A DNA stretch of 8,218 bases from positions 1 to 8,218 of the forward strand of contig JBKSMP010000011.1 in NCBI GenBank assembly GCA_046881885.1, written 5' to 3'. The notes beneath the pieces were generated by a model that ran no database searches, had not been told where the DNA came from, and saw only the letters and a program-made list of their open reading frames with translations. Shown here piece after piece: positions 5,776 to 8,218 of this stretch (position 1 is the first letter of the stretch; each line of letters opens with the position of its first letter). This DNA is from Opitutales bacterium. GTDB lineage: Bacteria > Verrucomicrobiota > Verrucomicrobiia > Opitutales > UBA9783. A program made the translations under genes and the position numbers.

Positions 5776-5802
5776 CCCCCGCATTGCGGGGGTATTTTTT
5801 TT
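5776..5802 (+). terminator. Rho-independent terminator (7-bp GC stem CCCCCGC-ATT-GCGGGGG followed by TA plus T8)
   Basis: Perfect hairpin at 5776-5792 and a T-run at 5795-5802. It lies 347 nt downstream of the murA stop. It is copy 1 of a repeated module (5776-5819 matches 7087-7131). Confidence 0.8.
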
Positions 5803-5819
5803 ATATTAGCAACAGATTT
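5802..5819 (-). pseudogene. 18-nt remnant of the 3' end of a paralog of the 264-aa gene (encodes KSVANI, stop lost)
   Basis: TATATTAGCAACAGATTT aligns with 7114-7131 (TATATTAGCGACAGATTT), the last six codons (...KSVANI) of the minus-strand CDS 7111-7905. Homology stops at 5819 and resumes at 5842 with the promoter module. Confidence 0.55.
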
Positions 5820-5833
5820 AAAAATACCGGATT

Positions 5834-5861
5834 TTGACAATTTGGTTTCTTGGCCTATGAT
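5834..5861 (+). promoter_or_regulatory. Candidate sigma70-type promoter for the 389-aa gene: TTGACA (5834-5839), 16-nt spacer, TATGAT (5856-5861)
   Basis: Read directly from the sequence. The -10 lies inside the conserved repeat (equivalent to 8020-8025). The consensus -35 lies in unit-1-specific junction sequence, and the equivalent position in unit 2 reads TTTGTA. Confidence 0.35.
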
Positions 5862-6016
5862 TTAAATAAAATAAGTAAGTGTAAAAAAAATAAAGGATAT
5901 TCGAAAATGGCTTGACAGGGATGGGAAAACGAACTACAAATCTATTTATGCAAACTAGGTTCATAATAACTATAGGAACACTCTTATTTGGGGTGAGTTT
6001 AACAAAAGCCGGAATA
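5842..6016 (+). repeat. Copy A of the conserved promoter/5'UTR/signal-peptide module (pairs with 8006-8180)
   Basis: Hand alignment at an offset of 2164 bp gives 17 mismatches in 175 nt (about 90% identity). It includes a perfect 71-nt block, 5873-5943 matching 8037-8107. Confidence 0.9.
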
Positions 6017-7081
6017 CGTGAAGACCTGGAGGCTGCTAACCGAATGTCTAACGAACAATGGGTTGAAAAGGCTAAATTATATATTTCTGTTTTTGACGAG
6101 TTGTATGCAGGTTTGGTAAATAAATGGAAGGAAGTTGGTGGACAGCTACACACAAATCCATTTTTTTTATATTGGTGGAAGCAAAATCAGTTTGTGTATA
6201 AAGAGCCTTATACAGAAGGTTATTCAGGTTATATAGAACCTTCACAACATAATCCTCGAAATTGTGGGTTGCATTGTTTGCGTGGATTTTTATGTTATCC
6301 GTGTGTGCAGTGTTTTGATGATACTGGTGTTGCAAATGATGAGTGTTACTGGGATTGGGTAATGGGAACACCTATAATGTGGTGGGCTTTTGGTATACCT
6401 TTTTTAGCGTCGTGTGCAAATCCTTCTGCGATGCCTATAGGAGATGATTATTTTACGCTTCATGTTTATAAGCCCATATGTAAAGAATGGTTATATCCTT
6501 TGTTAGGAATAAAAAAAGGAAATTGTAAAAAATTATATGACTACTGGATGTGTAATTTTTGTGAGCCTGTGGCAAGTTTATTGCAAAAAGTTTTAAAATA
6601 TGATTTTGCGCAATTTTCAGCAGAGCAATTAGATGCAGTTTTGAATTTATACAGAATTTACTATAATGCCGATAATCATTTTGTAAGCAAAGAGTTATGT
6701 CCTTTGCCTTTTTTTGAAACATTGCCTAATGCATTTAATAACAAATTTGCAAATCTTGTTATTAATAGTTTAGGCATAACAAATGAAACAGCATTGCGAT
6801 ATCTTGCCATAGTTTTAGCGTTAGATATGGAAATGGCAGATGAAAGTTTAGGATATTCTGTTCATGATTTATCTTGGTATAGTGTGGATATGCTGTCTGT
6901 CTTTAAAATATTAGTAGCACAAAGCGCAATAAAACCAATACAAGTACATTTAACGATAAAAGATTCTTGTGATGTTTTTTTAGCAAGGGCGAAACAAAAA
7001 TTAGATGAAGAAAATGCTTATAAACAAGGTGCAGCTACGCATGATGGATTTAATTATGCAATGAGGCGTATAAATGAATGA
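5912..7081 (+). CDS. Hypothetical secreted Cys/Trp-rich protein, 389 aa (member of a family sharing a conserved 5' module)
   Basis: Long ORF with a Sec-type signal peptide (..KRTTNLFMQTRFIITIGTLLFGVSLTKA|G). By my count it has 13 Cys, 11 of them within about 110 aa from NCGLHC to NFCEP, and 11 Trp. It is followed 5 nt later by a strong terminator. The start is ambiguous: TTG 5912, ATG 5921 or ATG 5948. I recognise no family. Confidence 0.8.
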   Translation: MTGMGKRTTNLFMQTRFIITIGTLLFGVSLTKAGIREDLEAANRMSNEQWVEKAKLYISVFDELYAGLVNKWKEVGGQLHTNPFFLYWWKQNQFVYKEPYTEGYSGYIEPSQHNPRNCGLHCLRGFLCYPCVQCFDDTGVANDECYWDWVMGTPIMWWAFGIPFLASCANPSAMPIGDDYFTLHVYKPICKEWLYPLLGIKKGNCKKLYDYWMCNFCEPVASLLQKVLKYDFAQFSAEQLDAVLNLYRIYYNADNHFVSKELCPLPFFETLPNAFNNKFANLVINSLGITNETALRYLAIVLALDMEMADESLGYSVHDLSWYSVDMLSVFKILVAQSAIKPIQVHLTIKDSCDVFLARAKQKLDEENAYKQGAATHDGFNYAMRRINE

Positions 7082-7086
7082 CCAAG

Positions 7087-7112
7087 CCCCCGCAATGCGG
7101 GGGTATTTTTTT
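7087..7112 (+). terminator. Rho-independent terminator (CCCCCGC-AAT-GCGGGGG followed by TA plus T7) shared by convergent genes
   Basis: Hairpin at 7087-7103 and a T-run at 7106-7112. It sits in the 29-bp gap between the stop of the plus-strand CDS (7081) and the stop of the minus-strand CDS (7111-7113). It is copy 2 of the terminator module. The T-tract is present only for the plus direction. Confidence 0.8.
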
Positions 7113-7905
7113 ATATATTAGCGACAGATTTTTCTGTTTGCGCAGCGCTCTGTAGTAATTGCTGCATAATATTGAGTACTTTGTCGATGAATTGTTGTAA
7201 GGAATCATTTCCTTTTGTATATTGTTCTTGTGCTTGCTTGAGAACTTCTATAGTTGCATCGGCTTGAGTCTGTTCGATTCTAGCATTGGTAGCCTCTACC
7301 TGAGATTTAGCAGATTCAATATTAGCACTACCTTCTATGATTTTACCCAAAGGCATTGCTGAACCTGAAATCATGTCTGCTGCAATACCTGAACGTGTCA
7401 ATTTTGTTTCTGTGGTTCCTACTTTTGCTCCACCTTGGTTATGTTTAAAACCAGGTCCCGTTACTTGCTTAGGTCCTGCAAAATTAAGACCGCCTCCTAT
7501 TATACCACAAGCACCGGTGGCAATACCGCCGACGATTTGTCCGACGGCTTGTTTTACTGCGGCTGTAAATTGAGCGTCTCGTTCTTTTTCCATGGCTGAG
7601 ATTTTGGTTTCTATCGCGGCAACAACGGCGGTTAAGATGTTGAGTGCGCGTTCGCGGTCTGCGGTCCGCAATTCGCCAAAAGTACTGATAAGCAGCTTCA
7701 TTAACTCGCGCAAGTCGAAGTCGGAAAGCGTTCCCTTTTTGGTTGTGACCTTTCCACTTTGATCCATTGAGTTAAGCGTGATAACCGAATCTGCGGTAAT
7801 TGGCCCGGCAGGCTCTACCGAGTAGGAAATATTTTTTAATTGCTCTCCAAAATATTTCTGAATTTCGGGTAAGTTTAAAACGTTTTCAAGGACTTTATGC
7901 ATCAA
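7111..7905 (-). CDS. Hypothetical coiled-coil protein with a central glycine-zipper hydrophobic segment, 264 aa (architecture like a secretion-system minor translocator or pore former)
   Basis: Long ORF with no Sec signal. A predicted helical region (ALNILTAVVAAIETKISAMEKERDAQFTAAVKQ) leads into AVGQIVGGIATGACGIIGGGLNFAG, then a Gly-rich loop and a C-terminal Q/A/E-rich amphipathic helix (SQVEATNARIEQTQADATIEVLKQAQEQY...MQQLLQSAAQ). The start is TTG 7905 or ATG 7902. The frame stays open upstream to 8025 with no canonical start codon. Confidence 0.8.
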   Translation of the reverse strand: MMHKVLENVLNLPEIQKYFGEQLKNISYSVEPAGPITADSVITLNSMDQSGKVTTKKGTLSDFDLRELMKLLISTFGELRTADRERALNILTAVVAAIETKISAMEKERDAQFTAAVKQAVGQIVGGIATGACGIIGGGLNFAGPKQVTGPGFKHNQGGAKVGTTETKLTRSGIAADMISGSAMPLGKIIEGSANIESAKSQVEATNARIEQTQADATIEVLKQAQEQYTKGNDSLQQFIDKVLNIMQQLLQSAAQTEKSVANI

Positions 7906-8005
7906 AATATCGCTGTCTTTGGGGGTTGTTATTGTTAATTGCCCATTTTCATACGATATACCCGTTATCCCTGCCTCCGCAAGACTACCTTCATTTTTTT
8001 GTATG

Positions 8006-8180
8006 TTGGTTTCTTGGCCTATGATTTAAACAAAGGAAGTAAGTGTAAAAAAAATAAAGGATATTCGAAAATGGCTTGACAGGGATGGGAAAACGAACTA
8101 CAAATCTGTTTATGAAAAGTCGACTCATAATAACTGTAGGAACACTCTTATTTGGAGCAAGTTTAACGAAAGCTGGGATG
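8006..8180 (+). repeat. Copy B of the conserved promoter/5'UTR/signal-peptide module (pairs with 5842-6016)
   Basis: Same alignment as copy A. It also serves as the divergent intergenic region between the 264-aa gene and the next paralog. Confidence 0.9.
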
Positions 8181-8218
8181 ACGTGGGAGGAATGGACACC
8201 GGAAAATGGTATCGTAGA
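8076..8218 (+). CDS. 5' part of a paralog of the 389-aa secreted protein, truncated by the window edge
   Basis: Same TTG/ATG start geometry (TTG 8076, ATG 8085, ATG 8112) and a near-identical signal peptide (MGKRTTNLFMKSRLIITVGTLLFGASLTKAG). The sequence then becomes unrelated (MTWEEWTPENGIV versus IREDLEAANRMSN). The frame is open to 8218. Confidence 0.75.
   Translation, partial: MTGMGKRTTNLFMKSRLIITVGTLLFGASLTKAGMTWEEWTPENGIV

Follow-up and report, generated by a model that had tools for sequence, protein, structure and literature searches.

The DNA analysed here, referred to as the window, is the whole 8218-nt contig of a metagenome-assembled genome (MAG) of an uncultured gut Opitutales bacterium (Verrucomicrobiota). 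Its right-hand part, which begins shortly behind murA (~5573) and extends as far as the contig does, carries two kinds of genes: SP genes, which encode proteins with a predicted signal peptide, and an X gene, which encodes a translocon-like protein. These are SP-A (type A, ACLRFH_01810, 377 aa; 5948..7081, forward strand), X (ACLRFH_01815, 263 aa from ATG 7902; 7111..7902, reverse strand) and the first 35 codons of SP-B (8112..8218, forward strand), which is cut by the contig end. Both complete open reading frames (ORFs) are the sole members of their own protein clusters. Each SP gene begins with a closely similar segment, termed the head, which comprises a promoter region and the signal-peptide codons, and the evolution of this head among otherwise divergent SP paralogs is the main subject of this paper. 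Because the contig ends at both window edges the window cannot be extended directly, and related contigs (L001, L002, L005, L006, L007, L009, L010 and L011) were compared instead.

The shared head and the SP genes

A preliminary description of this DNA had claimed two recurring modules, and both are recovered by self-BLAST of the window as well as by a repeat search and MAFFT alignment. The larger repeat pairs 5842-6020 with 8006-8185 (90.6% identity over 180 nt, E = 2e-64), and the smaller one pairs 5776-5819 with 7087-7131 (93.3% identity over 45 nt, E = 1e-12). The larger repeat corresponds to head A (5842..6016, forward strand) and head B (8006..8180, forward strand), which are delimited by the repeat search, MAFFT and BLAST and which cannot be aligned as DNA past 6016 and 8180, respectively. 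The longest identical run between them is exactly the perfect 71-nt core that had been reported, located at 5873..5943 (forward strand) in head A and at 8037-8107 in head B. The core consists of an A-rich UP-like tract, a -35 hexamer TTGACA (5912-5917), a 17-nt spacer and a -10-like hexamer TACAAA (5935-5940). The reading frame of SP-A had at first been drawn from TTG 5912; the NCBI gene call (P0001, 377 aa) and the N-termini of the homologues, which start with MKNR... or MQTR..., place the likely start at ATG 5948 instead, and at ATG 8112 in copy B, and therefore the 71-nt core lies wholly upstream of the ORF. ATG 5948 comes 7 nt after the TACAAA hexamer, and it is plausible that the mRNAs of the SP genes are leaderless or near-leaderless.

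The spacing of -35 hexamer, -10 hexamer and start codon is identical in the heads of three lineages (those of the window, L005 and L007) and in a degenerate third head, H0, which is described below. On both strands of the window, this pattern fits only three sites: head A, head B and 5620-5659. The promoter part of the head is better conserved than the signal-peptide codons, with 4 differences in 106 positions versus 13 in 69 (Fisher p = 0.0014), and the core appears either to be under extra constraint or to have been converted more recently than these codons. Third positions of the signal-peptide codons differ between heads A and B in 7 of 23 cases, and at a divergence of ~30% the last homogenisation of the head in the window lineage was therefore not recent. 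No phase-variable element was found in the promoter, that is, no tract of varying length, no flanking inverted repeats and no recombinase in the window, and the A8 tract at 5885-5892 is equal in length in head A, head B and L010. On its left side head A is joined to the remains of an X gene by a unique junction of 22 nt (5820..5841), which occupies the place of 874 nt of X in the second unit. A TTGACA at 5834, in the junction, and a TATGAT at 5856, in the head, form an 11/12 promoter-like site that is specific to copy A.

The signal peptides encoded by the two heads are MQTRFIITIGTLLFGVSLTKA in SP-A and MKSRLIITVGTLLFGASLTKA in SP-B, each followed by G. SP-A contains 13 Cys and 11 Trp residues. 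A protein search with the 44-aa SP-B fragment gave no match, and its homologue was found only by a profile search of representatives, which yielded an SP family of 45 representatives among 1.84 billion. One of these, P0040, begins with the exact right-edge peptide of the window, and the 883-nt contig that carries it, L010, matches window positions 8024-8218 at 99%. Neither an end of the right-edge ORF soon after 8218 nor a uniform full-length similarity of its product to SP-A, two outcomes that the preliminary description had named as telling against it, was found: the ORF runs for at least 235 codons in L010, and the mature part of SP-B is only ~27% identical to that of SP-A. None of the outcomes so named was encountered outright. 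In L010 the SP-B ORF (174-881) stops at 235 aa (..LEILLQCPTEINE followed by the stop codon), against 344 aa for the type B protein P0030; this early stop could reflect a frameshift or pseudogene, or be an artefact of the contig end.

The mature domains joined to the two heads had been described as variable. The comparison with P0040 indicates that they are deep paralogs within a single SP family, which contains at least three deep types, A, B and C (the last represented by P0005, P0006 and P0027). SP-B, which is 53% identical to P0030, is a type B paralog of SP-A. The reported collapse of identity by the signal-peptidase site is real at the DNA level, but it is largely caused by a 17-residue insertion in copy B (MTWEEWTPENGIVDGQA), past which the conserved first helix of the family resumes (ALQEMLEAGKMPDENWQEKAQTFINAFEKL versus IREDLEAANRMSNEQWVEKAKLYISVFDEL). 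This first mature helix (IREDLEAAN..EQWVEKAK) is conserved throughout the family. A hydrophobic N-terminal signal is present in 29 of 36 SP members, followed by KA and, across the putative cleavage site, by (G/D)I..DL..AN, and the signal is predicted to be of the Sec/signal peptidase I (SPase I) type. A lipobox Cys is absent from the window signal peptides (..LLFGVSLTKA, then G); the motif LLGC does occur in some SP relatives, where it is not conserved.

The AlphaFold2 model of SP-A, calculated with 37 sequences, is all-alpha, with a predicted local distance difference test score (pLDDT) of 79 and a predicted template modelling score of 0.77, and the Cys-rich segment 89-165 is its sole part of low confidence. 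No match to the SP family was obtained in Pfam, NCBIfam, PADLOC, PHROGs or PDB sequences, and a Foldseek search with the model retrieved no structure from the PDB or BFVD at E < 1e-3, the best PDB match having an E-value of 1.3, with no toxin among the matches. The earlier statement that the SP family is unrecognised is upheld by these profile and structure searches. A catalytic Cys-His-Asp arrangement was considered and rejected, since Cys205 is not conserved in the wider family. The named sources of SP proteins are Opitutales and Puniceicoccales MAGs, most members being unlabelled. The GC content of SP-A (30% at 6501-7000) contrasts with that of X (45-46% at 7251-8000), a difference that may follow from amino-acid composition, SP-A being rich in Asn, Lys and Tyr and X in Gly and Ala.

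Signal peptides and mature domains across lineages

The signal peptides of the window lineage, i.e., those of SP-A and SP-B (winA and winB) and of P0028, are identical at 15-17 of 21 positions. In a second lineage, represented by P0004 (type A), P0030 (type B) and P0005 and P0006 (type C), 17-21 of 22 positions are identical, whereas between the two lineages identity drops to 7-12 of 21 positions. The mature parts behave in the opposite way. Within a type they are 56-67% (A), 53% (B) or 56-60% (C) identical, and between types 24-41%. A matrix of signal-peptide and body identities makes it evident that the module groups by genome and not by ortholog, and this pattern, in which signal peptides cluster by genome and mature parts by type, is what concerted evolution of the head would produce. 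In the window the heads are 91% identical versus ~27% for the bodies, and in the second lineage the corresponding values are 92% and 26%. These figures agree with the earlier view of the head as an expression and export module placed on far more diverged mature parts.

The second lineage provides an independent example at the nucleotide level. The type B gene of L011 and the type A gene of L005 have 245 nt in common (92% identity), comprising 114 nt upstream and 43 codons, beyond which they diverge completely. L011 overlaps L005 at 100% over 445 nt, and it comes from the same sample as L006 (type A). The non-coding 70-110 nt upstream of the SP genes are likewise lineage-specific, yet common to the paralogs of that lineage. 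Purifying selection alone would not give different paralog types the same lineage-specific residues, and recombination or gene conversion must be invoked. Recombination or gene conversion on the 5' module was one of the possibilities raised in the preliminary description, and it is this one that the clustering by lineage rather than by type favours in both lineages.

The X gene, its relics and the surrounding array

The X gene of the window, previously described as a glycine-zipper gene, is a truncated copy. Full-length X relatives have 315-334 aa, with N-termini rich in Ser, Thr, Asn and Ile. Upstream of ATG 7902 the X frame continues for 36 codons as an untranslated remnant (codons 38-73, TNIQKNEGSLAEAGITGISYENGQLTITTPKDSDIL; 7903..8006, reverse strand), 35 of which are identical to residues 38-73 of P0023. 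This protein is an N-terminal fragment of the full-length form; its gene, a 97%-identical paralog, is cut by the end of another contig of the MAG, which is 82 kb long. The homology to P0023 ends exactly at the start of head B (~8006), with an in-frame TAA inside the head. Window X has lost its first 37 codons and its original start codon, and with them the part in which an N-terminal secretion signal and chaperone-binding region would be expected. In three strains (P0007-P0009) the ORF of the 263-aa form has stayed intact.

The X protein contains a hydrophobic glycine-zipper segment with a Kyte-Doolittle peak at residues 114-144 (VKQAVGQIVGGIATGACGIIGGGLNFAGP), followed by a C-terminal region for which long helices are predicted at residues 196-228 and 235-262, in a model of low confidence (pLDDT 38). 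A central hydrophobic segment preceding a C-terminal helical region is also the arrangement found in proteins of the SctB/SseC-like class. Three X proteins of different samples that are 86% identical vary at 47 positions, of which 36 are located in a hypervariable loop (residues 131-181) and none in the last 82 residues. Window X scores 29.0 bits against PF04888 SseC (cut-off 30.2), 30.2 bits against NF038055 SctB (cut-off 37) and 26 bits against NF052420 (cut-off 130). Over the X family, 18 of 19 members match SseD, 13 SctB, 9 Pfam SseC and 2 IpaC_SipC, all sub-threshold, with best E-values of 1e-8 to 1e-9 against translocon models and coverage of the C-terminal ~170 residues. Profile searches of X against PDB sequences were empty, and a match to NheC reached 19 bits (cut-off 420; E = 7e-4). 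The X family, which had been called unrecognised, can on this basis be recognised as a remote relative of the type III secretion system (T3SS) translocon proteins SctB, SseD and IpaC, not a demonstrable member of their families.

The SP and X genes had been described as a divergent pair, but the pairing is not obligate, and each occurs alone. A distant SP member in a Puniceicoccales MAG is a singleton without X nearby, and an X homologue in another Opitutales MAG occurs without SP; in L001 and L002 a lone X lies between pheT-gatCAB and grpE-dnaJ-recA. When they occur together, the two families can form extended arrays. The tandem layout that had been suspected for the window is found in its relatives, where L005 and L011 have the order B-X-A-X-A-X', and the composite L005/L011 locus reads NtrC-like regulator, X relic, head-B, X, head-A, X, head-A, truncated X, head. 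The regulator is a sigma-54-type NtrC-like response regulator located directly upstream of the first SP gene, of type C in L007 (regulator at 3-1127) and of type B in L011 (2-160). No sigma-54 promoter is seen in the heads, and control of the head by this neighbour was rejected, as no GG-N10-GC promoter is visible by eye.

In L005 a unit of 2287 nt is present twice at 99.5% identity, and its end-points, at X codons -146 and -91, coincide with the two borders of the variable loop in X. In the middle X of this contig the 5' half of the left X is combined with the 3' part of the right, truncated X, as expected from an unequal crossover. X1 and X2 are mosaic as well, with ~76 nearly identical N-terminal residues and a C-terminal half of ~55% identity. 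Truncated X relics are found beside the head in L010 (last ~93 codons) and in the third unit of L005 (last 91 codons), L011 contains an X remnant of 69 nt (482-550), and in L007 an X relic ORF of 97 aa and the SP gene are convergent; the relics of the window are the 263-aa copy and a scar of six codons. Comparison of L010 1-112 with window 7309-8023 reveals a structural polymorphism between near-identical strains, in which the same head B (99%) is joined to the 263-aa X in the window and to the last ~93 X codons plus 31 unrelated nt in L010. A full-length X of L005 starts only 29 nt from the left edge of the head, and the head takes up essentially all of the space between the divergent genes. 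All deletions that left the neighbouring gene's promoter intact would therefore have the same end-point, and no site-specific mechanism is needed to account for the coincident junctions.

The six-codon scar (5800..5819, reverse strand) encodes KSVANI, the last residues of X, and equals 7112-7131, the C-terminus of the 264-aa ORF; its stop codon has been lost through a 1-nt change. It adjoins the terminator hairpin T1 (5775..5802, forward strand; ACCCCCGCATTGCGGGGGT with a T-tract, and an A-tract on the opposite side), which has an 8-bp stem with 7 GC pairs. T2 (7086..7110, forward strand), a repeat of T1, is located between the convergent SP-A and X genes, and the hairpin (5775-5793 and 7086-7104) is a good intrinsic terminator. 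The smaller of the two window repeats, interpreted earlier as a 'terminator plus flank' cassette module, is best described as the 3' scar of a deleted X together with a shared terminator rather than as a functional element. Integron-like insertion at the terminator was discarded, as there is no integrase and the 3' end of X accounts for the 44-nt duplicate.

H0 (5573..~5690, forward strand) was identified from repeat families, BLAST and alignment with both heads and L010. It contains an A-rich tract, CTTGACG (-35, 5620-5625), a 17-nt spacer, TACTTA and GTG 5657, followed by about nine relic signal-peptide codons (MKARFTFIT, compared with MKSRLIITV of the head), and is 79% identical to head A (5573-5628 versus 5864-5919, E = 2e-4, BLAST). 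No intact gene lies downstream. The -35 and -10 hexamers of H0 still look intact, with T1 ~140 nt further on, and a short transcript or a 22-codon relic ORF from GTG 5657 could arise. The fold z-score from H0 to T1 is -2.5, driven mainly by the terminator, and the 5645-5800 transcript belongs to no Rfam family, giving only sub-threshold terminator-like matches.

Elsewhere in the window, the stretch 682-2982 encodes an ExeA/PEP-CTERM-type AAA ATPase (TIGR03015, 288 bits, cut-off 324) and, after it, in overlapping genes, two single-pass membrane proteins of 294 aa and 214 aa whose family is unknown. They are succeeded by a gene for a lipoprotein (3019-3474) with a glycine-zipper segment and an E/K/L/R-rich C-terminal tail that by eye is coiled-coil-like, and by one for a very basic, Lys/Arg-rich protein of 174 aa (3621-4145) that matches no family and has a cluster of Cys at its C-terminus. 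A Shine-Dalgarno-like motif is missing from all nine gene starts that were inspected in the window, and several of them have promoter-like hexamers ~5-15 nt from the ATG, e.g., TTGACG-17-TTCATA six nt before ATG 3019. This suggests that leaderless or Shine-Dalgarno-independent initiation may be widespread in the organism.

Interpretation and comparison with known systems

The locus is probably a recombining, partly eroding multigene host-interaction locus, of which the window would contain the left edge. Its ancestral unit may have consisted of X on the reverse strand, a short divergent promoter region, SP on the forward strand and a terminator common with the next X. Homologous and unequal recombination between the array's own repeats, i.e., the heads and the conserved halves of X, would drive its change. 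Such recombination would homogenise the head, and in one lineage also the first helix, among very different SP paralogs of the same genome; it would also duplicate units, create mosaic X genes and leave truncated X relics, with deletions stopping at the edge of the promoter needed by the neighbouring SP gene. The head itself would act as a strong sigma-70-type promoter (A-rich tract, TTGACA, 17 nt, TACAAA), with transcription starting at or by the ATG, so that all SP paralogs would be expressed and exported through the same two signals. Besides undergoing conversion, the promoter core would be constrained more strongly than the signal-peptide codons.

Several observations weigh against this interpretation. 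The intact 263-aa X in three strains is not predicted by pure decay. The perfect 71-nt core could reflect selection alone. Only two heads and one relic are seen in the window genome, and an exact 40-nt piece of the head core has no match in 185,579 reference genomes or in viral contigs. All translocon matches of X to hidden Markov models are below the curated cut-offs, and no genes for class II (TPR) T3SS chaperones, SctE, SctA or the injectisome are present in the window or in L001, L002, L005, L007, L009 and L011, up to 10 kb on each side, so that 'translocon-like' may not mean T3SS-dependent. The basis throughout is short-read metagenomic contigs, in which repeats invite mis-joins. Exact look-ups of SP-A and X, with either start codon, and of P0023 returned no record. 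Scans of Joint Genome Institute metagenomes with SP and X profiles gave no confirmed loci, a genome scan with X led to one short contig (L009), and literature searches for T3SS in Opitutales returned nothing relevant.

A fuller interpretation, which we consider unlikely, is that the locus performs programmed variation: the promoterless, 5'-truncated X copies would be silent donors that rewrite, by segmental gene conversion, the loop of an expressed full-length X, while the heads switch, shuffle or co-express the SP repertoire. Silent-cassette conversion systems of this kind are Neisseria pilE/pilS, Borrelia vlsE and Anaplasma msp2, and the locus may resemble them in combining, perhaps within one genome or strain, a full-length copy with 5'-truncated promoterless ones, and it has a variable segment bracketed by conserved sequence. 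In the same MAG one full-length X (P0023) coexists with truncated copies that lack start and N-terminus, and X varies mainly within a loop of 51 residues that has invariant sequence on both sides. Duplication and truncation breakpoints cluster at the loop borders in three lineages, X paralogs are mosaic, and the truncated ORF is kept open in three strains. However, there is no evidence of switching within a population, the window contains no recombinase, invertase or G-quadruplex-like element, and the A8 tract does not vary in length among the three intact heads. Truncated X copies lie scattered between SP genes instead of being archived; they grade into a six-codon scar which, like the decayed head, looks like erosion and not like a maintained archive. 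Moreover, truncated X retains both conserved and variable parts, as simple deletion would produce. If programmed variation did take place, a pore or translocon component would undergo antigenic or receptor variation, a phenomenon undescribed for T3SS translocators.

It is quite improbable that gene conversion played no part, the heads being alike only through strong purifying selection while the mature domains diverged after ancient duplications. In keeping with this view, the promoter core is perfectly conserved while silent sites of the adjacent signal-peptide codons differ by ~30%, and the first mature helix is conserved family-wide. Yet selection alone cannot give lineage-specific signal residues across types (..IIT[IV]GTLLFG.SLTKA in the window, ..LSLTVGALLLGCVCSIKA in L005, L011 and L007), when orthologous bodies stay 53-67% identical across those lineages and the upstream 70-110 nt are specific to a lineage yet common to its paralogs.

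An assembly artefact, in which the contig would be chimeric via the 71-nt exact repeat or derived from mixed strains, is very unlikely. The short-read data, a contig end 38 nt beyond the repeat, another contig of this MAG that breaks off inside a 97%-identical X, and the different junction upstream of the same head in L010 are compatible with such an error. The key junctions are nevertheless agreed on by independent assemblies, made from different samples with different assemblers: the overlaps among L005 (a scaffold) and the k141 contigs L006 and L011 are 100% identical, the X-A-X order recurs in L006, the 263-aa X is found in other samples (P0008 and P0009), and L010 reproduces the link of head B to SP-B at 99%. 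Furthermore, the heads differ on both sides of the core, and a swap inside the core would alter only the linkage and not the existence of two heads.

A polymorphic toxin-immunity array, with X as a glycine-zipper pore toxin, the periplasmic Cys-rich SP as immunity protein and truncated X copies as orphan modules like those of CDI or Rhs loci, would be in line with the hydrophobic glycine-zipper segment of X, its weak NheC match (E = 7e-4) and the alternation of SP with X genes including 5'-truncated ones, but it is highly improbable, because X varies in an internal loop rather than in a C-terminal toxin domain, the divergent or convergent transcription of X and SP is not that of a toxin-immunity operon, no co-variation of SP type with X is visible (in L005 and L011 one and the same type A gene is flanked by different X variants), lone SP and lone X genes exist, there are no PADLOC or toxin-family matches, and the SP-A model has no similarity to ClyA/Nhe folds. 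A binary alpha-pore-forming toxin (ClyA/Nhe/Xax-like) was rejected for want of fold or profile support. Cargo of a mobile cassette, prophage or plasmid was rejected also, given no integrase in the window, no PHROGs or PADLOC match, no plasmid tblastn match and no viral-contig match for X or the head core.

The recombining locus proposed here shares features with several known systems. In the erp, mlp and bdr families of Borrelia (cp32) and in vlp and vsa of Mycoplasma, paralogs share the promoter or 5' region, which in the Borrelia families includes an upstream homology box, and the signal peptide and have divergent mature parts. The preliminary description had pointed to this layout, and the likeness holds insofar as a shared 5' module is kept by recombination next to very different mature regions. 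The remainder of the parallel does not hold: the signal is of the Sec/SPase I type (TKA, then G) and lacks a lipobox Cys, hence no lipoprotein signal, and repeat-tract or invertible-promoter switches and phase-variable tracts are absent. In addition, the mature parts are ancient types conserved across lineages and not shuffled repeats, the SP genes alternate with a second, unrelated gene family, X, and the host belongs to the Verrucomicrobiota. Concerted evolution by unequal crossover or conversion is known from the staphylococcal lpl and ssl clusters and from 5' and 3' conversion among Helicobacter outer membrane protein genes. With these the locus has in common a tandem array, near-identical duplicate units (99.5% in L005), hybrid genes and homogenisation limited to a segment. 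Unlike in those clusters, the homogenised segment contains only promoter and signal peptide, in paralogs as distant as ~25% identity, and two gene families are co-amplified, head-to-head and tail-to-tail. X resembles the SctB class (SseD, EspB, YopD, IpaC/SipC; PF04888, PF05802, PF09599, NF038055, NF052420, TIGR02101) in the ~300-aa size and Ser/Thr/Asn-rich N-terminus of its full-length relatives and in its hydrophobic segment and C-terminal helical or coiled-coil region, but differs from it in the several copies per genome arranged in arrays, the hypervariable loop, the mosaic and truncated forms and the sub-threshold scores, and chaperone, SctE, SctA and apparatus genes are absent beside X in seven loci.

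The locus thus would offer a two-lineage case of concerted evolution limited to a promoter and signal-peptide module across paralogs of ~25% identity, and a natural case for how expression and export signals stay uniform in a gene family. Its SP proteins constitute a new family of probably secreted, all-alpha proteins without a PDB or Pfam relative. Such loci break short-read assemblies. The occurrence of SctB-like homologues with hypervariable loops as multi-copy mosaic arrays in uncultured gut Verrucomicrobiota, from a group of which only MAGs are known, hints at an interaction that may be directed at a host or at protists.

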